The notes under the pieces: model-generated | The model's input: only the letters and a program-made list of their open reading frames with translations | Database searches by the model: none | Told to the model about the DNA's origin: nothing | Virus record (IMG/VR): IMGVR_UViG_2721755658_000005 | Location: 1-46,563 of that record | Direction: 5' to 3' (one strand) | DNA length: 46,563 bases | From: a virus | Lineage: Duplodnaviria; Heunggongvirae; Uroviricota; Caudoviricetes | In this document: one piece after another, positions 3,233-46,563 of the stretch | Numbering within the stretch: position 1 is the stretch's first letter | Layout of the letters: each line of letters starts with the position of its first letter | Program-made: the position numbers and the translations under genes

Positions 3233-3619
3233 ACATTGCGTACAACCTTCCCGATTTACATTTCTGAACTTCCTCCCTTGTTTACCTATTGCGTAATGCG
3301 CCTGCTGCTACCCGGCTGGCGCGTTATCTTTTTACGGACAAACCATCATGCAACCAGAAGGTGAAGTATTAACCGATCATAATGAGCTAATTTGTTCAAG
3401 CTTTATTGAACACATTGCCAACACATTGAATTTAGGAGTGGTGTAGACATGGACAACTAAACCTGCAGCCACGGAGGTATAGCGAGTGAAGCCCTATCCG
3501 ACCTTTTTGGTCAGTAGATAAGATTGATCTTCGTTGATAGAATTTACTTACATCAGCAGTTACATGAAAATAATTTTTGGTGGGAAAAAGATAAGACACT
3601 ACGTAACTATTTGATTTCT

Positions 3620-3665
3620 TGGTGCCGATAATAGGAGTCGAACCTACGACCTTCGCATTACGAAT
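3620..3665. repeat. attL: 46-bp direct repeat identical to the 3' end of tRNA-Thr (prophage boundary)
   Basis: tggtgccgataataggagtcgaacctacgaccttcgcattacgaat is identical to 45120..45165. Confidence 0.85.
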
Positions 3666-4080: not shown

Positions 4081-5793
4081 CTAATTGGTCTCTATAATTG
4101 AGCTTAATTCGTTAATGAGCAGGTGAGGGCTCATTTGAGTTAAGTCATACTGCCGCCCCAATTTCTCTTGCATTCCTCCTCGTATTTTCTTTAATAAATA
4201 TTTGCCTTTAATGTTATTAACTGATGTCGGAACTTGGTTTCCAAATAATGTTAGGTGTCGAGGGCATGCTTCCAGTCTCCCCTTATATAAATTATATTTA
4301 ATCACCTCTCTTTTGGATTGAAAATCAGACTGGATGACAACATGATTTTGTGCGGCTATATCAGTAATCCATGTTTGTATATCTTGCACAGAAGAGCCTG
4401 TAACATGAGATAAATGCTCTATTCTGGTAAAATAACTCTCAATATCACTACCTTCAGTAATGAATGGAATGGCGCCACCTCTTTGAATTTCTGCTTTTAC
4501 TATATCTACTTCTTCATCAGTCATAAAATCGCGGTCACGATGAATTATAACCTTGCAATTAGGGGACATTTCCTTAAGAAGGTCAGCAGATACAATTGCT
4601 CCTTGCACATTTGTGCATGTTTTGTAGCTATAGACTGCAGTTCTCTCCATATCAAAACCATTATATTGTAAAAGGGCCTTGAAATATTTTTTATCTCTAT
4701 CTTCAGTGAGAAATATATTCTCCACAACTCCTTCAGTTACTCTATCCAAGTCATTTAAAGCTCCTAAATCTAAGAACATTGATATTTTGTCCAAATCCAT
4801 GCCTTGATTCTGAACATTACCATCTTTCATCCAAATAAAATTTGCCTCTCCATACAATGAATCAATTATATGTTTGCTATGAGTGGAAAGTATAACTTGA
4901 GTTTCTGATTTGTTATTTTCTGATATTAAACTCAATGAGTCAGTGAGAATATATTGATTATCAGGGTGAAGATGAGAATCCGGTTCATCTAAGAGTAATA
5001 ATTTAGGTTTGAAATATACTATATATGCAAATATCTGTAATGTTTGAAGTAATCCAGTTCCCGCCAACTCGATAGGGTAATTTTTCCCACTTGCATTTTC
5101 TTTAAAATTAACGGTTAGATAAGTATCTTTATCCTCTTTGAAATCCACTTCGATTTCTATATCTGGAAATACAACTTGCAGCATGCTATTGAGATTTACC
5201 AAGTGGTTATCTTTGTTCAGATAGTATATGACATTCCTTAAGTATAAATTTGCATCACCACTTGCCACTCCTCTTCTAACTATTGCTGGCGATTTTAATT
5301 CTTCCTTCTGTGAGATACCAGCCAGACCAGGGACATATATACTAAAGAGATTTTTTTCATCGGTGATTACTGAACCGAAGCCGGTATAATCACCGGTTCT
5401 TTCACATGACATATTTCCATGATTTCGTCCCTTAGATATAATTATATTGTATTCTAATTGTCGACCAGCAAGATCATCATATCCAAAAAGACTCAACACA
5501 CTTTGATTGCCAGGCGACCTCGAATTCTTATAAGGTTCGCCGTTCTTTAAAACAGTGAAGTCTGGGGTGATATTATACATTAAAAGTTCAGTAGAGAATG
5601 TTTGTTGACTTTGTTGCCGAGCGGCAATAGCTGCGCATACTGAAAAATGTATAGCTTGCAGAATACTGCTCTTACCTGAACTATTTGCCCCTACTAATAC
5701 ATTTATATCACTAAGGGTGATTTCTGCTGTGTCAATTTTTTTGAATTTACTAACAGACAAAGACTTAATGAACATTTTCTTTTCCTTTTTCAA
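4081..5793 (-). CDS. OLD-family-like ABC-type ATPase with C-terminal TOPRIM-like region; candidate phage-exclusion protein
   Basis: Walker A GANSSGKSS, Walker B LLLLDEPDSHLHP, H-loop-like LSTHS; C-terminal acidic motifs FLTEDRD and IIHRDRD; gene visibly AT-rich compared with flanking DNA. Confidence 0.6.
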   Translation of the reverse strand: MKKEKKMFIKSLSVSKFKKIDTAEITLSDINVLVGANSSGKSSILQAIHFSVCAAIAARQQSQQTFSTELLMYNITPDFTVLKNGEPYKNSRSPGNQSVLSLFGYDDLAGRQLEYNIIISKGRNHGNMSCERTGDYTGFGSVITDEKNLFSIYVPGLAGISQKEELKSPAIVRRGVASGDANLYLRNVIYYLNKDNHLVNLNSMLQVVFPDIEIEVDFKEDKDTYLTVNFKENASGKNYPIELAGTGLLQTLQIFAYIVYFKPKLLLLDEPDSHLHPDNQYILTDSLSLISENNKSETQVILSTHSKHIIDSLYGEANFIWMKDGNVQNQGMDLDKISMFLDLGALNDLDRVTEGVVENIFLTEDRDKKYFKALLQYNGFDMERTAVYSYKTCTNVQGAIVSADLLKEMSPNCKVIIHRDRDFMTDEEVDIVKAEIQRGGAIPFITEGSDIESYFTRIEHLSHVTGSSVQDIQTWITDIAAQNHVVIQSDFQSKREVIKYNLYKGRLEACPRHLTLFGNQVPTSVNNIKGKYLLKKIRGGMQEKLGRQYDLTQMSPHLLINELSSIIETN

Positions 5794-5822: not shown

Positions 5823-6107
5823 TTAGTTGTTAACATTCAAAATCATAAACTGATTCTCTATTTTACCAATGAATAGCAGTCCTATCAGAGTAAAAATAGT
5901 GTTAGATATTTTTCTTACATCTGAATCTGAGAAATATTCGGATTCTTTATAGCAATTATTCCATATGTCGAGTTCTCTAAAATCATAAGCTAAATGAGCA
6001 ATTTTTCCCCAATCTTCATTTACTATATGTTCAGCCATTGTAAAAAAATCACTCTTAGTCGGAATGTCTATTCTCATTGTTACTTGGCCTATTTTTTCAT
6101 TGCTCAC
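5823..6107 (-). CDS. Small hypothetical protein, upstream partner of the ATPase (likely co-transcribed)
   Basis: 94-aa AT-rich ORF ending 30 bp upstream of the ATPase start; hydrophobic stretch TIFTLIGLLFIGKI. Confidence 0.4.
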   Translation of the reverse strand: MSNEKIGQVTMRIDIPTKSDFFTMAEHIVNEDWGKIAHLAYDFRELDIWNNCYKESEYFSDSDVRKISNTIFTLIGLLFIGKIENQFMILNVNN

Positions 6108-6306
6108 ATATATAACTATATGATATTTATATTAAAACTCCAACATTAAGTTTCGGCTTTCTTCAAGTAAACTACATAGCACGATGTAAGCAACTTCCGC
6201 TTTTGGCACATAGCAGTCCTAGAGATACTGGCGTAAAGCCATGGAGGATCGGTGGGAGGAGGTAAAAATCCTCTCATGCAAAAAATACGCAAAATCGATA
6301 ACAGTT

Positions 6307-6386
6307 GGAAATCATTCAATACTCGCACTATCGGAAGTTCACCAGCCAACCGCAGCACGTTCTTGCATACGACATGCCTGCGGTTT
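6307..6386. repeat. Copy A of a ~80-bp repeat family with hairpin-forming 3' part
   Basis: About 88% identical to 8982..9061; its 3' half recurs at 10044..10087. Confidence 0.7.
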
Positions 6387-6535
6387 CAACTCCCGCCAGC
6401 TCCACCAATCATGATTGGACGGTTAAGGACAACACCAATAAAAACAGGAAGTTAGCAGTCTCAGCAGGACACCGACCAGACGGTGAGGAGACAAAAAAGG
6501 ATACGCAAAGGAGCCGCGGCTCCCGAGTGACAAAA

Positions 6536-6560
6536 AAGCCCGCTTATGCGGGCTTTTTTG
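6536..6560. terminator. Bidirectional rho-independent terminator candidate
   Basis: aagcccgc-ttat-gcgggctt hairpin flanked by an A-run on one side and a T-run on the other; lies just downstream of the Bro-N gene stop. Confidence 0.6.
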
Positions 6561-6576
6561 TTTTTTTCCCTCAAGC

Positions 6577-7338
6577 TCACTGACGTGTTCTTGCCTCAAC
6601 TACTTTCTGGTATATAGCGATAGCTTCATCAACCAAAGCTAATGGATAGCAAGAATTTATATTCAATCCGGAGGGGCACTTAATTCTTTCTGCTCCACGT
6701 TCACTACGCAATTTTTCACACCATTGCCAAAGTTCCTCAACTGAATAGGTATCCAAACCTAACTCCATCAATCGTTGAGGAACACTTCTGAACTGAGACA
6801 AATCTCTTAAACTTTCTAACGAGTTAACTTTTAGTTCAACTTGGTTTACTCTACTTTCTAACTCTTCACGTTTTTCTATTTCCATTACCAATGCTTGAAC
6901 CGTCTGCTGCAGACTGTTAGCAAAAGCACTCAGTTCTGAACGTTCTTGTTTAGGTGGCGGAGGATATACACCAAATTCACGAATAGACGGAAGGACCTGA
7001 TGAAAAAGCCAGCGTTGGAATTTTTTCCCCGCAGCAGTAGTATCCTGAGCAAGTACTCTATATAGACCTGGTTCAGTAAGAAATACCTCAGAGATAGTTT
7101 CACCATCCACGACAAGAGAAACATTCCTAAACTCATCTGGATCTAAAGTTTTTATTACCGCTTTTATTACAGTGAGCAAGCTTTGAGAAGTCTTTCCATC
7201 CAGTTTTCTGTTCTCAGCAGAAAGCGTTCTTAGCACATCTGAAAGTGAAACAAAAATCTGCCCTTTTTCATTCATGCTACGGATATAATTTTCTCCACAC
7301 TCTCCTTCGTAGCATAATTGTAACAAATTCTTTTGCAC
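6577..7338 (-). CDS. Bro-N domain protein (phage antirepressor-like)
   Basis: N-terminal region ends in the Bro-N signature EPGLYRVLAQ...FQRWLFHQVLPSIREFGVY; coiled-coil C-terminus. Confidence 0.65.
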   Translation of the reverse strand: MQKNLLQLCYEGECGENYIRSMNEKGQIFVSLSDVLRTLSAENRKLDGKTSQSLLTVIKAVIKTLDPDEFRNVSLVVDGETISEVFLTEPGLYRVLAQDTTAAGKKFQRWLFHQVLPSIREFGVYPPPPKQERSELSAFANSLQQTVQALVMEIEKREELESRVNQVELKVNSLESLRDLSQFRSVPQRLMELGLDTYSVEELWQWCEKLRSERGAERIKCPSGLNINSCYPLALVDEAIAIYQKVVEARTRQ

Positions 7339-7671
7339 GCCATCCCCTCCTTTTTTTATGGATTATACATCCTATAAACATGTTGTCACCGAAAGGGAAA
7401 AGCATAAACCCAATTTATGTTCCACAAGATGTTCAAAAATCAAACAACCATATAGCTGAGGAGCACAAAAGAGCAAAAGTTTACCAACCCCATATATCCA
7501 TACAGCACATAAAATTGACACTACATGTGGTATTTTTTAAGTTACGCCTTGCACCATTTCATGGTTTTATGTAGATTGTCATCACACGCTGAGATTAAAA
7601 AATTCTACAATTTTTGTTGATCTTGAGTTTGGTTTTTAGTATAAGTGAGCATGGATTGTAGGAGGCGCAAC

Positions 7672-8022
7672 ATGGTAACTAGCTTTGGTAAGACTCTCAG
7701 AAAAATGAGAATAGACCGGGGTATGGTGCTCAAAAATATGGCTGATCTGTTAGGCGTTAGTTCGGCTTACTTATCCGCCATTGAATTAGGCAAAAGAGCT
7801 ATACCGGACTCATTAGTAAATACGATTGCAACAACTTTTGAGCTTAGCGGACAAGACATCATCAATCTCAAGAAACAGGCAGAGATTTCTCAACCGTCCA
7901 TTAAGGTTGATATGTCGGATGCAAATGAGCAGAACAAAGAACTAATGCTTGTTTTTGCTCGTAAATTTAAGGACCTGAGTCCAGAGCAACTCGATAAGCT
8001 TAATAAAATGTTAAAGGACTGA
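7672..8022 (+). CDS. XRE-family helix-turn-helix transcriptional regulator
   Basis: HTH region MADLLGVSSAYLSAIELGKR; aggagg RBS 6 nt upstream of the ATG at 7672 (tracked ORF starts at GTG 7645). Confidence 0.7.
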   Translation: MVTSFGKTLRKMRIDRGMVLKNMADLLGVSSAYLSAIELGKRAIPDSLVNTIATTFELSGQDIINLKKQAEISQPSIKVDMSDANEQNKELMLVFARKFKDLSPEQLDKLNKMLKD

Positions 8023-8025
8023 ATA

Positions 8026-8559
8026 ATGATTGCGAAACGAGAACTTGGCCATCGCGTTTCACCTCTCAGCACCAGCATGATTAAATCATACGCTCATCGT
8101 CTGAGAGACGTTCTTCAGATATCAAATCACACATATCTGAGACTGGATGTATTACTAGAAGGTCTTATGGCCTCAGAAAGCATTGAGCTAGAAATTGTTG
8201 AAGATCATGAACTGCCCAAACGCTATGCAGTGACTTATCCAGATAAGAACAAAATTGTTTTACAGCGATCTGTTTACGATGCAGTGTGCAATGGTGAGAA
8301 CCATGCGAGATTCACTGTTGCGCATGAACTTGGTCATTTAGTCATGCATCGCAATCAAAGTATCTATGCACGTAATAAGACTAGTGGAGGGCATAAAATC
8401 TATGAAGACAGCGAATGGCAAGCAGATGTTTTTGCAAGCCACTTCTTAATTGACTCAAGACTAGTTTTGCCCACAATGACTGTTGAAGATATAAGCAAAA
8501 CATTTGGTGTCAGTCAACAAGCGGCTGAAACCTGGATGAGAAAAAATGCAAAAAGATAA
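8026..8559 (+). CDS. ImmA/IrrE-family zinc metallopeptidase
   Basis: HEXXH motif in TVAHELGHLVMH; starts 3 nt after the HTH gene stop, the classic HTH-ImmA pair. Confidence 0.7.
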   Translation: MIAKRELGHRVSPLSTSMIKSYAHRLRDVLQISNHTYLRLDVLLEGLMASESIELEIVEDHELPKRYAVTYPDKNKIVLQRSVYDAVCNGENHARFTVAHELGHLVMHRNQSIYARNKTSGGHKIYEDSEWQADVFASHFLIDSRLVLPTMTVEDISKTFGVSQQAAETWMRKNAKR

Positions 8560-8684
8560 CGAAAAAGCCAGCGAACCGCTGTCGCTGGCTTCTCCTATCG
8601 TAAGCAAATACGAAAAACTTGGCGGTTGTGAGTATACGCTTACCTTAGGTTTTGTCAACAGCGAAACTTTACAGGTAACACGAT

Positions 8685-8828
8685 ATGACCATTGAAAAAG
8701 CTGTATCTGAGGAATACATCACAATTTACCGTCCTTTTATTACGGTCAAAGGTAAACGGATCTTTGCTCGTCAAAAAGGCTTGGCAGCCTTTCCTATCAA
8801 AATTCCTGCCTCTAAGTATCGAGGATAA
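8685..8828 (+). CDS. Small ORF (47 aa), hypothetical or gene remnant
   Basis: ATG-initiated frame MTIEKAVSEEYITIYRPFITVKGKRIFARQKG; below the ORF-track length cut-off; weak RBS. Confidence 0.25.
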   Translation: MTIEKAVSEEYITIYRPFITVKGKRIFARQKGLAAFPIKIPASKYRG

Positions 8829-8981
8829 TCTTTGCTAATCTTAGGCCCTTTTCTAGGGCCTTTTATTACACTTCTGTTACGCGCACCACAGATAGAGTTT
8901 CAGCTAAAACTTTTGTTCATACCTAGGAGTCTGCTGACGAGTGGTTTGTTCACTAATAAACACGTAAAAACGGTAACGGCT

Positions 8982-9061
8982 GGACATCATTCAATATTCG
9001 CACTATTGGAAGTTCACCAGCCAGCCACAGCACGTTCTTGCATACAACGTGCCTGCGGTTT
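8982..9061. repeat. Copy B of the ~80-bp repeat family
   Basis: Aligns to 6307..6386; hairpin gcacgtt-cttgcatac-aacgtgc followed by a T-run. Confidence 0.7.
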
Positions 9062-9153
9062 TTGAGACCGGTCCGATCATCAAACGAAACATAAAATTAG
9101 CTCACACTATGAGGAAAAGTATCTTTTTTTACTATGTAAATTCAAAGAATTAG

Positions 9154-10023
<870 letters not shown>

Positions 10024-10043: not shown

Positions 10044-10087
10044 AACCGCAGCACGATCTTCTTCCATACGACGTGCTACGGTTTCAT
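10044..10087. repeat. Copy C (partial, diverged) of the repeat family; likely bidirectional terminator between convergent genes
   Basis: aaccgcagcacg...cgtgctacggtttcat matches the 3' hairpin half of copies A and B. Confidence 0.55.
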
Positions 10088-10638
10088 TTATCTCCGACCG
10101 GAAACTTCTTATACAGTGTCGATATACCAACATCATAGATGATCGCCACCTTCTGGCGAGGGACGCCTGATGCAATTAATCGCCCGGCCTGCGCCCATTG
10201 TTCTGGTGTAAGTTTGGGACGACGTCCACCAATTCGTCCCTGTGCGCGAGCAGCGTCCAGTCCAGCTTTTGTTCGTTCAACAATCAGTTCTCGTTCCATT
10301 TCAGCCAGGGCACCCATCATATGAAAGAAAAAACGCCCCATCGGTGTGCTGGTATCAATAGCATCCGTCAGGCTGCGAAAATTAACGCCACGTTCGCGCA
10401 ACTCCTCAACCAGAATGACCAGATGCCGCATACTACGCCCCAGCCGATCCAGCTTCCAGACAACCAGAGTGTCACCTGCCGATAATGTCCTGAGCAGTTT
10501 TTTCAGTCCCGGCCTTTCGGACTTTGTACCGCTTATCTTGTCTTCAAAAATCAGCTCGCATCCTGCACAGTTCAGCGCATTACGTTGTAGATCTGTGTTC
10601 TGGTCATTTGTTGACACACGTACATAGCCAATAAGCAT
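10084..10638 (-). CDS. Serine DNA invertase (Pin/Gin/Hin family)
   Basis: N-terminus MLIGYVRVSTNDQNTDLQ with catalytic-serine context; C-terminal HTH; adjacent to the invertible tail-fibre segment. Confidence 0.85.
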   Translation of the reverse strand: MLIGYVRVSTNDQNTDLQRNALNCAGCELIFEDKISGTKSERPGLKKLLRTLSAGDTLVVWKLDRLGRSMRHLVILVEELRERGVNFRSLTDAIDTSTPMGRFFFHMMGALAEMERELIVERTKAGLDAARAQGRIGGRRPKLTPEQWAQAGRLIASGVPRQKVAIIYDVGISTLYKKFPVGDK

Positions 10639-10664
10639 GGTAGATCTCCCTGACAAAAGCAGGA

Positions 10665-11159
10665 ATGATGCCATTTGCTCGTTATTTCTGCATTTTCATA
10701 AACGTTGGTTTGGGAGAATCGGCAAAACGGAATGTGGGCAACGGGGAAAACCAAATCCCTGATATGTCTTTCTGGACGGTTACTGGTGGCAATGGAAATT
10801 TTGTGATTCGTCAACCTGACGGGCTAATCATTCAGATGGTTACTGTAAGTATAAGCGGCCCGGTGGCGATGAATGGAATGACTGATAATGCTTATGCCAT
10901 TACAGGTTCTAATAAGTCTTATATTGCCACAGCCACATTGCCCTTTGTATTTCCTAATAAGGTGCTGGGCGTTATCCCTCTGGTATCAACAACAGCTTAT
11001 GGTGGTGTATCCAGTAATATTACAGGTTCATACGCGACTGCGGTTTGTTCTTTTGCCGCTGTCAGGGGGAATAATACGATTGTGTTCAAAGTCGACAAAC
11101 CACTGAATGCAGCCTTTCCTTCAGATACCAGCGTCTCAGCGTTAATCATTGGACGGTAA
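10665..11159 (+). CDS. Alternative tail-fibre C-terminal variable segment (expressed after inversion)
   Basis: The crossover site falls at a GLGE junction motif shared with the active fibre gene; no independent N-terminal constant region. Confidence 0.55.
   Translation: MMPFARYFCIFINVGLGESAKRNVGNGENQIPDMSFWTVTGGNGNFVIRQPDGLIIQMVTVSISGPVAMNGMTDNAYAITGSNKSYIATATLPFVFPNKVLGVIPLVSTTAYGGVSSNITGSYATAVCSFAAVRGNNTIVFKVDKPLNAAFPSDTSVSALIIGR
10683..10708. repeat. Invertase crossover site (left inverted repeat of invertible segment)
   Basis: ttttcataaacgttggtttgggagaa; its right half is the reverse complement of the right half of 12677..12702; resembles gix/hix-type sites. Confidence 0.6.
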
Positions 11160-11161
11160 GA

Positions 11162-11605
11162 ATGAACTCAGTATTCTTTTCACCCGGAAGTAAAAGTTTT
11201 TATCTGCAAGAATTGTTTCCAGAATATGAGGATGCGGGAACGCTTCCTGATGATGTTATTGAAATTACCAGAGAAACATATGAGCAATTTCTTGGGCTGC
11301 ATCCAGAAGGGAAAGAAATTGGCGCTGACAGTTCAGGACGGCCAGTATGGATTAATTCCCCACCCCCTTCAAAAGAGGATGAGGTGTTGACGGCTGAAAT
11401 GAAAAAAATATCTTTGGTTTCTGAAGTCAATACCTACATCAATACTCATCAGTGGCCTGGCAAAGCGGCGATTGGTCGTCTGAAAAGTGAGGAACTGGCG
11501 CAATATAATTTGTGGCTGGATTATCTGGACGCACTGGAACTGGTTGATACCTCCAGTGCTCCAGATATTGAATGGCCTACGCCTCCGGCAGTTCAGGCCA
11601 GATGA
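11162..11605 (+). CDS. Tail fibre assembly protein (alternative orientation)
   Basis: 147-aa ORF directly after the alternative fibre segment, inside the invertible region. Confidence 0.6.
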   Translation: MNSVFFSPGSKSFYLQELFPEYEDAGTLPDDVIEITRETYEQFLGLHPEGKEIGADSSGRPVWINSPPPSKEDEVLTAEMKKISLVSEVNTYINTHQWPGKAAIGRLKSEELAQYNLWLDYLDALELVDTSSAPDIEWPTPPAVQAR

Positions 11606-12179
11606 CATCCGGCGCGGTGCTGGTATCTGTTGCCGTCACCGTGTCAATGTAATCCAGCACAGCGTTAAGGCGAGTGATTTCTGCTTGCGTCAGCTGCCGC
11701 CCGGCCTGCAATTTCAGCTGAATCAGACTGATGGAAGCCATAGCAGCATCAATCAGCGACTGGCGCTGTGCTTCTGCCACGTCTACTGCGGCGCTATGCT
11801 GTGCCTCAGTATCGGTCACCCATTTCTCACCATCCCATTTATCGAATGGCGTTAACGGGGCGATAGTAGTTGTATTTTCAGAGTAATCACCCGGAGCTGT
11901 GATTTCTTTTGATTCTCCTGTTTCAGTGCTATATACCGTTTCACCGCGATGGTCTGGCACATATTCCCATGAGTTAAAATCTGCAGAACGGCAGATTGCA
12001 TAACCAGCTTTATGTGTGCCGGGCGCATCGGTACAGGAATTGGCAGGAATACCCACCCCCACAGGCAGATACTCAACCGATGAGGATATGTATTCGCGGG
12101 TGTCGCCCCGGTAGTTGTACACAGTGATTTCACCTGCCACGGTGGCAATAAACGCACTGTTTAATTTTGCTTTCGCCAT
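11577..12179 (-). CDS. Tail fibre assembly protein
   Basis: 200-aa ORF directly after the tail fibre gene, inside the invertible region. Confidence 0.6.
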   Translation of the reverse strand: MAKAKLNSAFIATVAGEITVYNYRGDTREYISSSVEYLPVGVGIPANSCTDAPGTHKAGYAICRSADFNSWEYVPDHRGETVYSTETGESKEITAPGDYSENTTTIAPLTPFDKWDGEKWVTDTEAQHSAAVDVAEAQRQSLIDAAMASISLIQLKLQAGRQLTQAEITRLNAVLDYIDTVTATDTSTAPDVIWPELPEA

Positions 12180-37882: not shown

Positions 37883-38337
37883 TCTTCACCCGATGCAGCG
37901 CGCTTGCTGCTTTTCCGTAAGCACCGCTCACGACGCGCCAGAAAATTGTTTCGTTCTGGCTGGGAGTGGCTTTCACGGAATGCCGCCATCCACACCGTTG
38001 CAGCTCGACGGAATAAGCCCCTGGACTCCAGTTCTTCAGCCTGGCGGGTCAGGCACAAAATCACCCGGGGGTCGTTAGTGCCGACATAGAAATTGCGCAC
38101 AGGTCTGGTTTCACAAACTGGTTCCGGCTCCTGCGATATCTCAGCCTGGCGCGGGAAATGTCTGCGTGTATCCTCTTCACAACGGTGAGCCACACGCCCA
38201 CTCTGACGTAACTTGCTTGCTGACTGCAGAACGCGCTGCCGTGAGTAACCTGCAAAAGCATCCGCAATGTCTCCGGAAGTACACCCCGGATGGGCTTCAA
38301 TGAATTTCTGAACGTCATTTAACAGACTCATGATCAC
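37849..38337 (-). CDS. Hypothetical phage protein (possible PerC-like regulator)
   Basis: 162-aa basic protein; family assignment uncertain. Confidence 0.35.
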   Translation of the reverse strand: MIMSLLNDVQKFIEAHPGCTSGDIADAFAGYSRQRVLQSASKLRQSGRVAHRCEEDTRRHFPRQAEISQEPEPVCETRPVRNFYVGTNDPRVILCLTRQAEELESRGLFRRAATVWMAAFRESHSQPERNNFLARRERCLRKSSKRAASGEEWYLSGNYVGA

Positions 38338-39275
38338 CCTCTGAATCCTGCCGGGATCTGGCTGTAGTCCACGTTGTCGTAACTGGCTTTGAAGTACGGG
38401 TCCTCGCGTTTTTCGGTGTACGTGCTGACGGACGGCGATAAGCGCAGGGAAAGCTCATCCCATTTTTCCCGCAGCTTCGACGGGCTGAGCACGTTACGGC
38501 ACCAGAACGGATCGCGGCTGACGCGGCTGTACATCTCGCAGATTTGTTTGTGAGTACGCCCATCCTGTACACACATCAGGCGAATTTCGTTTGCCCAGGC
38601 TGTCCAGTTCGGTTCTTTGGGACGAACCACCTCGCCGTCACATTCGGCGGCTTGCTCGTACAGGGCGATGATTTTTTTCCAGAGCCACTGTGCGCAGGTC
38701 AAATCATCCTGCGTTCCCCACTGGCGCTTTTTAGGGCTGAATACAACCGCATCAGGATGGCGAGTTAAAAAATCCTGTTCATCCGTCTGCGTGTCCGGTT
38801 GCGAAGCGTCCGGACGAGAAGGTTTTTTATCTGACGGATCATGTTTTGATTTTACTGACGGATCCCCGCCAGATTCTGACGGGTGAAAACCCGCTTTTTT
38901 GCCAGATTTCGACGCATCAAATTTTGACGGGTCAGATTTTGATGCGTCAGATTTTGACGGGTCAGAATCTGACAGTTGAGAAAATGCCGCTGCCTGAAGC
39001 TTCGCAACGTTAAGCTGATAAACATTCGACGCATTGCGGTTACCCTGGCGACGCGCCTTACGCGTTAACCAGCCTTCTGCTTCCAGCCGTGCGATAGCCG
39101 TCCTGACGGTACTCATCCCCGCGCCAATCTGACGGGCAATAGTTTCAATTGATGGCCAGCACACACCTTCGTCATTACTGAAATCAGCCAGGCGGGCCAT
39201 AATTGCCACGCTGGATAATTTCATGCCTGATGCAGCGCAACCATCCCATACATAGCCGGTTAATTTAGTGCTCAT
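38334..39275 (-). CDS. Replication initiation protein (lambda O-like, N-terminal HTH) containing origin iterons
   Basis: N-terminal HTH region; internal SDPSKSDASKSDPSKFDASKS repeat encoded by DNA iterons. Confidence 0.65.
   Translation of the reverse strand: MSTKLTGYVWDGCAASGMKLSSVAIMARLADFSNDEGVCWPSIETIARQIGAGMSTVRTAIARLEAEGWLTRKARRQGNRNASNVYQLNVAKLQAAAFSQLSDSDPSKSDASKSDPSKFDASKSGKKAGFHPSESGGDPSVKSKHDPSDKKPSRPDASQPDTQTDEQDFLTRHPDAVVFSPKKRQWGTQDDLTCAQWLWKKIIALYEQAAECDGEVVRPKEPNWTAWANEIRLMCVQDGRTHKQICEMYSRVSRDPFWCRNVLSPSKLREKWDELSLRLSPSVSTYTEKREDPYFKASYDNVDYSQIPAGFRG
38828..38975. repeat. Iteron array (about 8 copies of a tcagattttgacgg-like unit); candidate replication origin
   Basis: Tandem degenerate direct repeats visible in sequence inside the initiator gene, as for lambda ori within O. 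Confidence 0.6.
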
Positions 39276-39623: not shown

Positions 39624-40228
39624 GCGTTAGTTTCTCCACAGTCACGACACGCCACGGCGCCCGGAGCTGCACACTCGCGGGCGTCATTACTTTCTGAAAT
39701 GCAAAAGATTTTGTAGACCAGTGCTGCATGCTCCTGCAGCTTCGAAATTGAGAGATACAGCTCGTCGTTAATTGCTGTCTTCTCATGCGGTTCCACTACA
39801 CCGTCTTCGATTGCTGAACGAATCTGTTTTGAATAACTGCCGATCTGTTCAATGACTTCCAGCAGACGCTGGTTAATATCGGCGTTGTCCACATCCTCGA
39901 CGTCAGGAAGAGACACAAAGACGCCATTGGCAGACTGCGCCACAGCGTCAGCAATGAAGTGAGTTCCACCAGCACGTTGCAAAATCATTGCCCATCCCAG
40001 CGGGAAAATCTGATCGCCATCGGCACGAAGGCGGTTAAATAATGCGTTTTCTGTTACATCCAGCCAGTCAGCTGCTTCAGCGTAACCACCCGGCAACGCT
40101 GCGATAGTTTTTCTGACAGCTTTCACGTACCACTCAGGCTGTTTTTCTACTTTCCAGTGATGCTTACCCACGGTTAGCCTCATCGTTCTGTGGTTTCTGT
40201 TAATCGATTTATCCATTAGATTTTTCAT
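39620..40228 (-). CDS. CII-like phage regulatory protein (YdaT-like)
   Basis: Position directly after the Cro-like gene; start taken at internal Met MKNLMDKS of tracked ORF 39620..40285. Confidence 0.45.
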
Positions 40229-40409
40229 AAAGCTCAGGTTTAAATGGCAACCGTCCGCAAGTTCTATATGCAGCTTCTGCTGCACGTCCTTTTGGAATTA
40301 ACTGGCCCGGACGGTTTCGCCACTGATAAACGGCTTCAGTTGTTATGCCGAAAAAAGCAGCAACTTTCTCAATACTGCCGAAGTAGCTTTCGATATCGTC
40401 AGTTGTCAT
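40209..40409 (-). CDS. Cro-like HTH repressor (YdaS family)
   Basis: 66-aa product with HTH FGITTEAVYQWRNR; divergent from the CI-like gene. Confidence 0.7.
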   Translation of the reverse strand: MTTDDIESYFGSIEKVAAFFGITTEAVYQWRNRPGQLIPKGRAAEAAYRTCGRLPFKPELYEKSNG

Positions 40410-40506: not shown

Positions 40507-41133
40507 ATGGAAACGGTTGGTCAGCGTATAAAAGCTCTGAGAAGAGTTACCGGAACGTCCCAGAAAGAATTGGGTAAATTTTGTGGAGTAAGCGACGTTG
40601 CTGTGGGGTACTGGGAGAAAGACATCAATACCCCTGGTGGGGAGGCACTTTCGAAATTAGCGAAGTTCTTCAATACGTCAATAGATTACATTCTTTATGG
40701 TGCTGAGTTTGAAGGCAAACTCGTCACAAACATGCGCAGAGTTCCTGTAATATCGTGGGTTCAGGCTGGGCAGTTTACTGAGTGCAGGGCAGCAGAAGTG
40801 TTTAGTGAAGTGGACAAGTGGGTAGATACATCATTAAAGATTGGTGATAACTCATTTGCATTAGAGGTTAAAGGTGACTCCATGACTAACCCTAATGGCC
40901 TCCCAACAATACCAGAAGGCGCAACAGTGATTGTAGATCCAGATGCAGAACCTCGTCATGGAAAAATAGTCATCGCTCGACTTGATGGAACAAACGAAGC
41001 TACAGTAAAAAAATTAGTCATCGATGGCCCTCAAAAGTTTTTAGTGCCATTAAATCCTCGGTATCCCAACATCCCTATCAATGGTAATTGCCTTATCATT
41101 GGTGTAGTCAAAGGAGTTCAATACGAACTCTAA
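40507..41133 (+). CDS. CI-like repressor with S24 LexA-type autopeptidase domain
   Basis: N-terminal HTH; C-terminal catalytic serine context GDSM and lysine in ATVKKL. Confidence 0.85.
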   Translation: METVGQRIKALRRVTGTSQKELGKFCGVSDVAVGYWEKDINTPGGEALSKLAKFFNTSIDYILYGAEFEGKLVTNMRRVPVISWVQAGQFTECRAAEVFSEVDKWVDTSLKIGDNSFALEVKGDSMTNPNGLPTIPEGATVIVDPDAEPRHGKIVIARLDGTNEATVKKLVIDGPQKFLVPLNPRYPNIPINGNCLIIGVVKGVQYEL

Positions 41134-43715: not shown

Positions 43716-44065
43716 TGGAGCCATACAGCCTCACACTCGATGAGGCCTGTCATTTTCTCAAGATATCCAGACCGACTGCCATTAACTGGATACGCACAGG
43801 GCGTCTTCAGGCAACACGCAAAGATCCCACTAAGAATAAATCTCCTTACCTCACAACACGACAAGCCTGCATTGCGGCTCTTCAGTCTCCGCTGCATACT
43901 GTCCAGGTGAGCGCGGGTGATGGCATAACAGAGGAAAGAAAATGTCACTCTTCCGCAGAGGTGAAATATGGTACGCCAGTTTCACATTGCCGAACGGTAA
44001 AAGATTTAAACAGTCTCTTGGAACAAAGGACAAAAGGCAGGCGACAGAACTCCATGACAAGCTAA
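43715..44065 (+). CDS. Excisionase-like DNA-binding protein (AlpA/Xis-type HTH)
   Basis: [33 protein letters not shown] is a typical Xis/AlpA HTH; the frame runs on past the integrase start, so the true stop is uncertain. Confidence 0.5.
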
Positions 44066-45105
44066 AGGCTGAAGCATGGCGGGTCAGCAAACTTGGTGAA
44101 ATACCTGATATAACGTTCGAGGAAGCGTGTGTCAGGTGGCTTGAAGAGAAAGCACATAAAAAATCACTGGACGATGACAAAAGCCGGATCGGATTCTGGC
44201 TTCAACATTTCGCAGGAATGCAACTAAGAGACATTACTGAATCAAAAATTTATTCAGCAATGCAGAAAATGACGAACCGGCGTCATGAGGAAAACTGGAA
44301 ACTCAGGGCAGAAGCATGCAGAAAAAAAGGGAAACCTGTTCCAGAATACACGCCAAAACCAGCGTCCGTTGCAACGAAGGCTACGCATCTTTCATTTATA
44401 AAGGCCCTACTAAGAGCCGCAGAGCGTGAATGGAAAATGCTGGATAAGGCACCAATTATTAAAGTGCCTCAACCAAAGAATAAACGGATCCGCTGGCTGG
44501 AGCCCCATGAAGCACAAAGGCTGATTGATGAATGTCCGGAGCCATTAAAGTCTGTTGTTGAATTTGCACTGGCAACAGGCTTAAGACGCTCGAACATCAT
44601 CAACCTTGAATGGCAACAAATAGATATGCAGCGCCGGGTGGCATGGATAAACCCGGAAGAGAGTAAATCAAACCGCGCAATTGGCGTTGCGCTGAATGAT
44701 ACTGCATGTCGCGTATTGAAAAAACAAATCGGGAATCATCACCGTTGGGTATTTGTGTACAAGGAAAGCTGTACCAAACCAGACGGAACGAAAGCGCCAA
44801 CAGTAAGGAAGATGCGGTATGACGCAAACACAGCCTGGAAAGCGGCGCTGAGACGGGCTGGTATTGATGATTTCAGATTTCACGACTTGAGACACACCTG
44901 GGCAAGTTGGCTGGTTCAAGCCGGAGTCCCGTTGTCAGTGTTACAGGAAATGGGAGGCTGGGAGTCTATCGAAATGGTTCGTCGATATGCTCACCTTGCA
45001 CCTAATCACCTTACCGAACACGCACGGCAAATAGACTCGATCCTGAACCCATCGGTCCCAAATTTGTCCCAGTCAAAAAATAAGGAAGGTACTAATGATG
45101 TGTAA
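43942..45105 (+). CDS. int: Tyrosine integrase (phage integrase family)
   Basis: N-terminus [28 protein letters not shown]; C-terminal R...H..R...Y context (HDLRHTWAS...RYAHL); ends 15 bp from tRNA-Thr. Confidence 0.9.
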
Positions 45106-45119
45106 CTTATTGATTTACA

Positions 45120-45195
45120 TGGTGCCGATAATAGGAGTCGAACCTACGACCTTCGCATTACGAATGCGCTGCTCTACCAACTGAGCTATATCGGC
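45120..45195 (-). tRNA. thrW: tRNA-Thr (anticodon CGU)
   Basis: Reverse complement reads GCCGATATAGCTCAGTTGGTAGAGCAGCGCATTCGTAATGCGAAGGTCGTAGGTTCGACTCCTATTATCGGCACCA with anticodon loop TTCGTAA. Confidence 0.9.
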
Positions 45196-45309: not shown

Positions 45310-46563
45310 TTACGCACGAATGGTGTAATCACCAATGCCGATCCACTTGTAAGTGGTCAGTGCTTCCAGCCCCATTGGGCCACGCGCGTGGAGTTTTTGT
45401 GTGCTTACCGCCACTTCCGCACCCAGACCAAACTGGCCGCCGTCGGTAAAACGCGTAGAGGCGTTAACGTAAACAGCGGACGAATCCACTTCGTTAACAA
45501 AACGCTGGGCGTTGCGCATATCGCGGGTCAGGATCGCATCGGAGTGTTGTGTGCCGTGTTCACGAATATGGGCGATGGCATCGTCAAGATCGCTGACGAT
45601 TTTGACGTTCAAATCTAATGACAGAAACTCATCGTCATACTCTTCGGCTTTAACAGCAACCACCTTCGCAGGGCCTGCCTGCAACTGCGCCAGTGCAGCT
45701 GCATCTGCGTGTAATGTCACGCCGCTTTCCGCCATTTGTTTGCTTAATGCAGGCAGGAAGCTATCGGCGATGTTTTTATTCACCAGCAACGTTTCAACCG
45801 TATTACATGTGCTCGGACGCTGAGTTTTCGCGTTGACGATCACTTTTAATGCTTCAGCGATCTCTACACTTTCATCAACGTAAATATGGCATACGCCTAT
45901 ACCACCTGTGATCACCGGGATTGTCGACTGTTCACGGCACAGTTTATGCAAACCAGCGCCACCACGCGGGATCAGCATGTCGATGTATTTATCCATACGC
46001 AGCATTTCACTGACCAGCGCACGGTCAGGATTATCAATCGCCTGCACGGCACCCGCCGGTAAGCCGCAGGATTTCAGGGCGTCCTGAATCACCGCCACCG
46101 TTGCAGCGTTAGTGCGACACGTTTCTTTGCCACCGCGCAGGATCACCGCATTACCGGTTTTCAGGCACAGCGAAGCGACATCAACCGTCACGTTCGGGCG
46201 CGCTTCATAAATCACGCCAATAACCCCCAGCGGTACGCGACGACGCTCAAGACGCAGGCCGCTGTCCAGTACGCCGCCATCGATTACCTGCCCCACCGGA
46301 TCGGCGAGGTTGCACACCTGACGTACATCGTCGGCAATGCCTTTCAGCCGTGCGGGCGTCAGTGCCAGACGGTCAAGCATCGCTTCGCTAAGGCCATTGG
46401 CTCGCGCGTCAGCAACATCCTGGGCGTTAGCGTTGAGGATGATTTCGCTTTGTGCTTCCAGTTCATCGGCGATTTTTTCCAGCACGCGATTTTTTTCGCG
46501 GCTGGAGAGTTGCGCTAATTTATACGAGGCTTGCTTCGCGGCAATGCCCATTTGTTCCAGCAT
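45310..46563 (-). CDS. proA: Gamma-glutamyl phosphate reductase
   Basis: 417-aa product [38 protein letters not shown] matches E. coli ProA as recalled; start codon at the window edge. Confidence 0.95.

Follow-up and report, generated by a model that had tools for sequence, protein, structure and literature searches.

A repressor-metallopeptidase cassette in an Escherichia coli prophage carries a conserved small-protein gene and a predicted antisense RNA

Introduction

Few two-gene modules are as common in phages and defence islands as pairs of an XRE-family repressor gene and an M78 (COG2856) metallopeptidase gene, and the targets of such pairs are known only for ICEBs1, Deinococcus, the cyclic-oligonucleotide-based anti-phage signalling system (CBASS) and the Listeria monocin. 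One such pair lies in the virus record IMGVR_UViG_2721755658_000005, which was analysed over its positions 1 to 46,563 (46,563 nucleotides (nt), hereafter the window). A previous reading of the window (the sequence-only reading) had described the pair as a second repressor-like module, of a damage-responsive kind, in a phage that already has CI and Cro, and had suggested that it may control neighbouring accessory genes or be a remnant of another element's immunity system. Here the locus is compared with the closest described systems, and a small protein encoded downstream of the pair, here called X2, is put forward as its candidate output.

In ImmR/ImmA of Bacillus subtilis ICEBs1 and phage phi105, an XRE repressor is followed by a small (~170 residues) M78/COG2856 peptidase without a GAF domain. 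The two form one transcription unit within a mobile element, under an autoregulated promoter, and they act as a repressor-cleaving regulator, not as a toxin. In IrrE(PprI)/DdrO of Deinococcus, the XRE repressor loses its activity through a cut in the C-terminal region by which it dimerises; IrrE, which carries a GAF domain, controls a chromosomal regulon, and the genes do not form an operon with a small effector. CapH/CapP, which is found with prophages and defence islands and lies divergent from the operon that it controls, pairs a helix-turn-helix (HTH) repressor with a peptidase that continues into an HTH-like linker and a GAF domain. CapP binds single-stranded DNA (ssDNA) in the groove between its domains, is activated by it, and cleaves CapH at F82|R83, a site within the first helix of the C-terminal dimerisation domain. 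For Xre-COG2856 modules in general, the protease has been predicted to cleave an Xre repressor that controls an unknown third, effector component (Makarova et al. 2009).

Two further systems bear on the downstream part of the locus. In tisB/istR-1, an SOS-linked type I toxin-antitoxin (TA) system, a small open reading frame (ORF) encoding a hydrophobic membrane helix is under the stress-responsive repressor LexA, and the leader is bound, far 5′ of the start codon, by a ~70-nt RNA that has a promoter and a terminator of its own. P22 immI (mnt, arc, sar RNA, ant) is an additional regulatory region, located near the tail genes and at a distance from main immunity. Its arc-sar-ant layout runs from repressor genes through an intercistronic antisense RNA to the regulated gene, and sar RNA, which covers the ant ribosome-binding site, acts as a post-transcriptional lock.

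Results

The repressor-peptidase pair and its small downstream gene

The segment ~7505-8861 of the window can be read as one cassette holding, in that order, a candidate promoter with a dyad operator, an XRE repressor gene, a gene for an ImmA-type peptidase, a predicted cis-antisense small RNA (sRNA) and the X2 gene (coordinates of all features are collected in Table 1). The peptidase gene starts 4 nt past the end of the HTH gene, on the same strand and with the repressor first; the listed ORF of the HTH gene starts further 5′, at a GTG at 7645. The HTH protein matched Pfam HTH_19, HTH_31 and HTH_3 (E 3e-9 to 6e-7) and the peptidase matched Peptidase_M78 (E 2.8e-11), all above the gathering score, which bears out the sequence-only reading in its identification of a second module besides CI/Cro. 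Against PADLOC profiles, the HTH protein matched capH across its full length (1.2e-10), and the peptidase matched capP (5e-15) at profile positions 31-146 of 242 only; DdrO was also found in a sequence search with the HTH protein. The AlphaFold2 model of the peptidase (predicted local distance difference test (pLDDT) 90) stops after a helical linker, and neither this model nor the partial capP coverage shows a GAF domain in the 177 residues. A Foldseek search with the model returned IrrE (3dti) as the top match, together with CapP (7t5t), a mycobacterial XRE-COG2856 regulator and PprI with ssDNA (8sln). CapP 7t5t (278-291 residues) is also the closest solved relative by sequence. With IrrE, CapP and PprI as the closest folds, the earlier assignment to a damage-responsive repressor/protease kind holds by homology only.

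The peptidase carries the motif H100-E101-L-G-H104 and E130-W-Q-A, and H100, E101, H104 and E130, plus W131, Q132 and A133, were invariant in 26 homologues down to 33% identity. Because the motif is intact and invariant, the dead HEXXH that the sequence-only reading had named as an argument against itself is not what was found. In 89 distinct HTH homologues the C-terminal tail was variable with the exception of a near-invariant F95-A96-R97, which is suggestively comparable in position and chemistry to the F82|R83 cleavage site of CapH. As in ImmR/ImmA, a short tail of the repressor would be the expected cleavage target and, by analogy with CapP, the cut would fall near a Phe-Arg pair in the C-terminal domain. 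Judged on these matches, the pair is a bona fide member of the broad XRE plus M78/COG2856 repressor-protease kind, with an architecture closest to that of ImmR/ImmA: a small peptidase without GAF, behind an XRE repressor, under what is here a predicted autoregulated promoter in a mobile element. Membership of RosmerTA was rejected. That system needs a single HTH-M78 fusion of ~360-400 residues (RmrA) beside an RmrT toxin, whereas in PADLOC the RmrA profiles were matched only in part, with the HTH and peptidase portions on separate proteins, and no RmrT match was obtained.

There are also clear differences from the known pairs. Unlike ImmR/ImmA, the cassette lies apart from the lysis-lysogeny switch of its element, and its operator pattern was not seen at excision or lytic promoters; a small-protein gene and a predicted antisense gene lie downstream where ICEBs1 has int, the host is Gram-negative and sequence similarity is confined to the domains. 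The pair lies ~32 kb from CI/Cro, at the opposite end of the prophage and, as the sequence-only reading had stated, divergent from a Bro-N gene. With no second good operator match in the window, a role as the main immunity switch is not indicated. Unlike CapP and IrrE, the peptidase lacks a GAF domain and, relative to CapP, a cysteine-switch loop. X2 lies downstream in the same operon and not, as in the CapH/CapP arrangement, in a divergent defence operon sharing a common promoter region with the pair.

X2 (MTIEKAVSEEYITIYRPFITVKGKRIFARQKGLAAFPIKIPASKYRG) was kept in every close relative. At least 177 loci with peptidase relatives were collected from genomes, viral contigs and exact-protein look-ups, the last of these giving the close relatives and the genome contig scan giving mostly distant ones. 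A hidden Markov model (HMM) built from seven X2 sequences and iterated on the six-frame ORFs of all 177 loci gave 76 matches, every one of them on the same strand and just 3′ of a peptidase homologue. These cover 67 of the 93 loci with a full-length peptidase, plus nine loci with partial peptidase matches. The conserved core is approximately [YF]xx[IV][FY]Rx[FY]ITxxGKRI[YF]AxxxGLxAFx[IL]x[IV]. When 1.84 billion representative proteins were searched exhaustively with the profile, 65 clusters were found (E ≤ 0.001), whose representatives are nearly all stand-alone proteins of 37-87 residues. One database protein, P0085, resembles a fusion of X2 to part of an otherwise unrelated 249-261-residue protein that is considered in the Discussion. 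X2 has no family in Pfam, PHROGs or NCBIfam. It is rich in Lys/Arg, and its AlphaFold2 model (pLDDT 82) consists of four short strands and a helical turn.

A full-length HTH homologue was found directly 5′ of the peptidase in ~85 of the 93 loci with a near-full-length peptidase, and thus the pairing is not due to chance. The repressor-peptidase loci span Gamma-, Alpha- and Betaproteobacteria, Clostridia, Synergistota, Fibrobacter and spirochaetes and are mostly in prophages. Proportions of non-synonymous (pN) and synonymous (pS) differences were calculated against the Salmonella, phage LLS, Serratia and Edwardsiella copies. Across HTH, ImmA, Bro-N and X2, pN was 0.06-0.2 against a pS of 0.67-0.89 (HTH gene, 0.07-0.16 against 0.67-0.81; X2, 0.09-0.14 against 0.73-0.89), and on these ratios all four genes are under strong purifying selection.

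Xre-COG2856 pairs have been predicted by comparative genomics to be TA-like mobile modules (Makarova et al. 2009), and a classical type II system, in which the COG2856 peptidase is the toxin and Xre the antitoxin, could be read into the present pair. We regard this as very improbable: the characterised kin MpaR, IrrE/DdrO and CapP/CapH are repressor-cleaving regulators and not toxins, and a conserved third gene better fits the three-component version of those modules. The third components predicted there are RelE or PIN toxins; here, in contrast, there is a 47-residue protein and a predicted antisense RNA.

A predicted antisense RNA gene between ImmA and X2

The spacer between ImmA and X2 (125 nt) is conserved far above the flanking coding DNA. 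RefSeq places a 49-residue ORF, here 'X1', across it and labels both this frame and X2 'hypothetical protein'. As a gene, 'X1' was rejected: the frame is lost in LLS, Serratia and Edwardsiella, and pN (0.074) equals pS (0.079), whereas pS in the flanking genes is at least 0.67 and near saturation. Most likely, 'X1' is a false gene call over an antisense RNA gene, its DNA being conserved because of that gene and not because it is coding. On the minus strand, the spacer holds a promoter that matches the consensus at 11 of 12 positions, followed ~35 nt 3′ by an intrinsic terminator hairpin (GCCAGCGA-N7-TCGCTGGC and a U-run). Transcription between the two would give an RNA of ~70 nt complementary to the ImmA-X2 intercistronic messenger RNA (mRNA). 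The hexamers and the hairpin were essentially invariant in six of seven aligned taxa. The seventh, Providencia, has TTGACG and TATATT as its -35 and -10, with the stem rebuilt by compensatory changes. The predicted sRNA folds with -26.8 kcal/mol (z = -3.85), and no Rfam family matched it or the spacer at either gathering or permissive thresholds. Read on the plus strand, the same hairpin may attenuate read-through into X2.

The strand bias extends to the whole family. Over 53 distinct ImmA-X2 spacers, the best promoter-like score averaged 9.02 on the minus strand and 7.06 on the plus strand (Wilcoxon p = 1.4e-9), with shuffled sequences at 7.70, and a terminator-like hairpin was found on the minus strand in 36/53 and on the plus strand in 9/53; a near-matching set of 52 spacers has a median length of 136 nt. 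Because of this asymmetry, the predicted antisense gene appears to be a family feature and not a local accident.

A small ORF with a conserved, predicted antisense promoter and terminator recalls type I TA systems. As in tisB/istR-1, the predicted RNA would be cis-encoded, of ~70 nt and directed at a leader well upstream of the start codon of a small ORF, which would itself be under a stress-responsive repressor. In contrast, X2 is basic and predicted to be beta-stranded, and is not the small hydrophobic membrane peptide of a type I toxin; moreover, the proposed repressor is a protease-cleavable XRE protein instead of LexA. The layout is also that of P22 immI: the regulatory region is an additional one, remote from main immunity and close to tail genes, and a predicted intercistronic antisense RNA lies 5′ of the regulated gene. 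P22, however, has no protease, and whereas sar covers the ant ribosome-binding site, the RNA predicted here pairs 60-130 nt upstream of the X2 start. The predicted pairing resembles that of leader-targeting type I systems more than that of sar. Homology to Arc, Mnt or Ant was not found in the cassette: in Pfam and PHROGs the two regulators matched XRE and M78, and X2 had no match.

Promoter and operator-like sites

Upstream of the HTH gene an inferred sigma-70 promoter was identified, of which the pattern TTGAnn-N17-TATAAn is kept in six of seven aligned taxa (Providencia has TAGACA). Its -35 is overlapped by the right half-site of a 17-bp dyad, TCTACA-N5-TGTTGA, whose only exact match in the whole window is at this position. 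A lone match with one mismatch, inside the cI coding region (40921-40937), was taken as chance, and the half-sites alone are not enriched in the window. In the seven-taxon upstream alignment the dyad reads TCAACA..TGTTGA in Serratia and TCTACA..TGTAGA in Providencia, and the half-sites therefore change together. Palindromes like TCAAC(A/C)-N5-7-(G/T)GTTGA were also present 5′ of the HTH gene in several distant loci. A second conserved box further upstream possibly represents another operator or other regulatory site of the cassette. Thus, the only evident repressor target in the window would be the pair's own operon, through this putative operator.

These sites bear on whether the repressor could instead control the divergent Bro-N gene, the GIY-YIG gene PD-T4-3 or both, with ImmA lifting repression after DNA damage in the manner of CapH/CapP. 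The capH and capP profiles are the best PADLOC matches of the pair, known capH/capP genes are typically divergent from the operon that they control, as Bro-N is here, and Bro-N accompanies the pair in E. coli, Salmonella and phage LLS. Moreover, one locus (L111) has a KilA-N-like gene, its sequence judged by eye, directly 5′ on the same strand, the divergent neighbour at another (L097) is a restriction-modification operon, and repression of PD-T4-3 in its native host has been raised as a possibility in work on a natural isolate. The dyad, however, occurs once only, at the pair's own -35. The promoter-like site of Bro-N is ~240 bp away, and no copy of the dyad was found near it, near or 5′ of PD-T4-3 or in the cI/cro intergenic region. 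PD-T4-3 is on the same strand as the pair, beyond the operon terminator, and a dinI fragment and that terminator separate it from X2. Furthermore, the Serratia, Edwardsiella, Providencia and Rheinheimera relatives lack both Bro-N and the GIY-YIG gene yet keep X2 and the antisense signals. Control of these neighbours, which the sequence-only reading had suggested, is accordingly unlikely in our view, the dyad being confined to the pair's promoter and both genes being missing from most relatives. Bro-N was found beside the cassette only in E. coli, Salmonella and LLS, being absent next to the homologues in Edwardsiella, Serratia, Providencia, Rheinheimera and Marinimicrobium, and it is probably not in the core unit.

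Control of Bro-N or of the operon by SOS/LexA was also considered and is unsupported, because LexA boxes (CTGT-N8-ACAG, one mismatch allowed) number 19 in the window against 16 expected and none is near the module.

Spread of the cassette among prophages

Of 5,426 complete E. coli genomes, 33 carry the cassette with an identity of at least 98.7%, in every case on the chromosome. Beyond E. coli, its surroundings vary widely. The Serratia and Providencia copies are in the nin/Q region of lambdoid prophages, and a copy in a Mu-like prophage follows Mor and precedes a SocA/Panacea pair. In Salmonella P2/186-like prophages (loci L083-L088, ~6855-7565) the cassette is followed by genes for an UmuD-like S24 peptidase and DinI, so that this prophage end is a cluster of SOS-related accessory genes. 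The Edwardsiella neighbour is a giant polymorphic-toxin-like gene, and the Marinimicrobium neighbours are a restriction-modification operon and PIN toxin genes. An integrase is often near cassette relatives, according to a neighbour tally that comes from a crude ORF caller, is noisy and was judged by eye. The carriers of the cassette thus include lambdoid, P2/186-like and Mu-like prophages, which differ in their repressor families, and it also occurs in a defence island. It moves between unrelated prophages and is more aptly regarded as a portable accessory cassette than as a component of the host phage's lysis-lysogeny circuit.

The same distribution weighs on the idea that the locus helps prophage induction, either by ImmA cleaving in trans the CI-like repressors of resident or co-resident prophages, as MpaR does, or by X2 or Bro-N being an antirepressor that the switch releases, as in P22 immI. 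Listeria MpaR cleaves the repressors of two different elements, the order of repressor, intercistronic antisense RNA and regulated gene mirrors arc-sar-ant, Bro-N matches PHROG anti-repressor families, and the Salmonella cassette sits beside DinI- and UmuD-like genes at a prophage end. On the other hand, the resident CI has its own S24 self-cleavage domain, and its induction therefore needs no helper. A 99.9%-identical cassette occurs in prophages with different tail modules, and relatives occur in lambdoid, P2/186-like and Mu-like prophages; given their varied repressor families, a repressor-specific partner is disfavoured. We consider such a helper role distinctly unlikely.

Host prophage, neighbouring genes and arrival of the block

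The window is a segment of an E. coli chromosome with a ~41.5-kb prophage at thrW, the ends of which are marked by a 58-nt attachment (att) repeat (Table 1). The cassette has the left att site on one side and the invertase and tail-fibre genes on the other, and occupies a moron position at the end of the prophage.

Table 1. Positions of the cassette, its neighbours and landmarks of the prophage in the window.
Feature	Position	Strand	Details
Upstream conserved box	7517-7532	+	ACACTACATGTGGTAT (ACAACATATAGT in relatives); seven-taxon alignment, including taxa without Bro-N
Operator-like 17-bp dyad	7604-7620	+	TCTACA-N5-TGTTGA; right half-site overlaps -35
Operon promoter, inferred sigma-70	7617-7645	+	-35 TTGATC 7617-7622, 17-nt spacer, -10 TATAAG 7640-7645
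Shine-Dalgarno of HTH gene	7660-7665	+	AGGAGG
XRE-family HTH repressor, 116 residues	7672-8022	+	ATG at 7672; N-terminal HTH ~residues 5-67, then C-terminal tail
ImmA/IrrE-type M78 zinc metallopeptidase, 177 residues	8026-8559	+	Pfam PF06114
'X1' ORF, 49 residues in RefSeq	8546-8695	+	overlaps X2 start and spacer; rejected as a gene
Antisense RNA promoter	8658-8631	-	-35 TTGACA 8658-8653, 16-nt spacer, -10 TATACT 8636-8631
Predicted ~70-nt cis-antisense sRNA	~8624 to 8553	-	complementary to ImmA-X2 intercistronic mRNA; predicted ends
Intrinsic terminator hairpin and U-run	8595-8561	-	terminator scan
X2, 47-residue basic protein	8685-8828	+	third cassette gene, 3′ of ImmA
Terminator-like hairpin closing the operon	8843-8861	+	terminator scan; 3′ of X2
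Bro-N/Ant-like gene	6577-7338	-	Pfam Bro-N, PHROG anti-repressor families; divergent from the pair
Bro-N promoter-like site	7389-7362	-	-35 GTGACA 7389-7384, -10 TATAAT 7367-7362; promoter scan
GIY-YIG gene, PD-T4-3/CMoRE	9247-10023	+	PADLOC full-length match, E 2.4e-140
Fossil ssrA 3′ end (last ~25 nt; att core)	6383-6406		followed by ssrA terminator 6529-6562
dinI-like fragments (107-nt direct repeat, 87% identical)	6280-6386 and 8955-9061	-	bracket the Bro-N/HTH/ImmA/X2 block
58-nt att direct repeat	3608-3665 and 45108-45165		marks prophage ends; overlaps tRNA-Thr(CGT)
tRNA-Thr(CGT)	45120-45195		thrW integration site
Tyrosine integrase	43942-45105		adjoins right att repeat
CI of the prophage	40507-41133		HTH_3 and Peptidase_S24
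Cro-like gene	40209-40409	-	faces CI

The GIY-YIG gene beyond the operon terminator is PD-T4-3, also known as CMoRE, a stand-alone type IV restriction endonuclease against DNA with 5-hydroxymethylcytosine (5hmC) or glucosyl-5hmC, as in T-even phages. On the other side of the block, a full ssrA gene beside Bro-N was rejected because ARAGORN and Rfam found none; only the last ~25 nt of ssrA and its terminator are present. Window positions 6400-9200 match the ssrA-attL junction of E. coli C7 at 99.9% identity, where the Bro-N/HTH/ImmA/GIY-YIG block forms the end of a prophage with lambda-type tail genes, and a 76%-identical Bro-N/HTH/ImmA block immediately adjoins attP(ssrA) in the isolated phage LLS. 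From the ssrA att core, these two junction matches and the dinI repeat, we conclude that the block came by recombination from an ssrA-integrating phage, and the dinI-like repeats are probably scars of its arrival. The ssrA fossil inside a thrW prophage records a swap of the integrase/att module.

Arrival by recombination, to which the fossil ssrA core and the two dinI-like fragments testify, would also be expected if the cassette were a decaying remnant of another element's immunity region, as the sequence-only reading had allowed. Against this, the frames are intact, pN is far under pS, the catalytic residues are invariant, the pair is kept in many phyla, and X2 with the antisense-promoter spacer is retained in 67 of 93 relatives. 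Moreover, the cassette is present in the viable phage LLS and well conserved in the 33 E. coli genomes. The purifying selection contradicts decay, and a remnant is highly unlikely.

Other features of the prophage were observed in passing. A 570-residue ABC-type ATPase (4081-5793, minus strand) and then a 94-residue orphan ORF (5823-6107, minus strand) are just inside the left att site; the former matches Pfam AAA_15/AAA_21 and PADLOC NsnB, AriA, OLD and GajA-like profiles, and together these genes may make up a two-gene defence system. A Gin/Cin-type serine invertase (Resolvase and HTH_7; 10084-10674, minus strand) adjoins opposed tail-fibre and tail-fibre-assembly ORFs (10665-12179), and the segment 10084-12179 looks like an invertible host-range segment comparable to those of Mu, P1 and phage LLS, whose invertase is annotated Fin. 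Inside a replication-initiator-like gene (38334-39275) there are four to five tandem 15-bp repeats (CAGATTTTGACGGGT-like; 38903-38977), which are probably origin iterons. Outside the prophage, thrW is flanked by a 417-residue ORF (45310-46563, minus strand), which from its length and the position in K-12 we take to be proA.

Discussion

The sequence-only interpretation stands in so far as it recognised a second repressor-protease module, and is not supported in its two suggestions for what the module does, namely control of the neighbours and survival as a remnant. It had missed X2 and the predicted antisense RNA, which more probably represent the regulated output. The following scheme, in which the pair is the sensor half of a self-contained cassette, builds on what the sequences show directly: the genes present, their intact motifs, purifying selection, the pair kept across phyla, the occurrence of all four parts in most relatives, the position and uniqueness of the dyad and the antisense promoter and terminator signals. 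In a lysogen, a repressor dimer on the dyad over its own -35 would keep the operon low, while a constitutive antisense RNA of ~70 nt would pair with the ImmA-X2 intercistronic mRNA and block residual X2 expression. By analogy with ImmA, IrrE/PprI and CapP, a stress signal (DNA damage or ssDNA, which may also arise in phage infection) would activate ImmA, which would then cut the C-terminal tail of the repressor near F95-A96-R97. With the operon derepressed, mRNA would outnumber the antisense RNA and X2 would be made. What we infer are DNA binding, cleavage, the signal, the sRNA and its action, and the role of X2. Taken as a whole, an autoregulated repressor/ImmA switch and an antisense RNA that gate X2 as output is a mechanism to which we give an even chance of being right.

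Several observations weigh against it. X2 was undetected in about a quarter of the loci with a full-length ImmA homologue. The -10 of the operon promoter (TATAAG) lacks the usual final T, and because of this a consensus scan did not list the promoter. The mode of action of the antisense RNA is uncertain, since the predicted pairing does not cover the X2 ribosome-binding site. Because the peptidase is without the GAF half of the CapP DNA groove, its activating signal may also differ. Finally, in loci L178 (382-1391) and L180 (257-1328) X2 homologues follow an unrelated uncharacterised protein of 249-261 residues. The two copies of this protein are 39% identical to each other and have no Pfam family, and the L178 locus adjoins an RloB-like fragment. 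X2 and its leader can therefore join other partners, and X2 with its spacer could be an independent unit that is merely beside the switch.

If the switch does gate X2, our preferred guess for the protein is a growth-arresting effector of the abortive-infection type or a general modulator of the host stress response, over a repressor-specific antirepressor. A role independent of the repressor is favoured because the prophages that carry the cassette differ in their repressor families, and because copies lie within or next to defence genes. More broadly, the cassette may represent a hitherto undescribed system of defence or stress response, spread over the prophages of many phyla, in which a cleavable XRE repressor and a type-I-like antisense RNA jointly gate basic beta-proteins of ~45 residues (X2) as growth-arresting or host-modulating effectors on DNA damage or infection. 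X2 would then be the predicted third component of Xre-COG2856 modules. This wider proposal is a tentative one and, in our view, less likely than not. A limited search of the open-access literature found no description of an arrangement of X2 with antisense RNA, and an earlier description is possible.

Taken together, a whole clade of XRE/M78 pairs with its own conserved candidate output gene and predicted antisense RNA provides a concrete, testable candidate for the third component of these modules. Routine annotation recognises neither the small protein, a candidate effector, nor the RNA, a candidate sRNA family.

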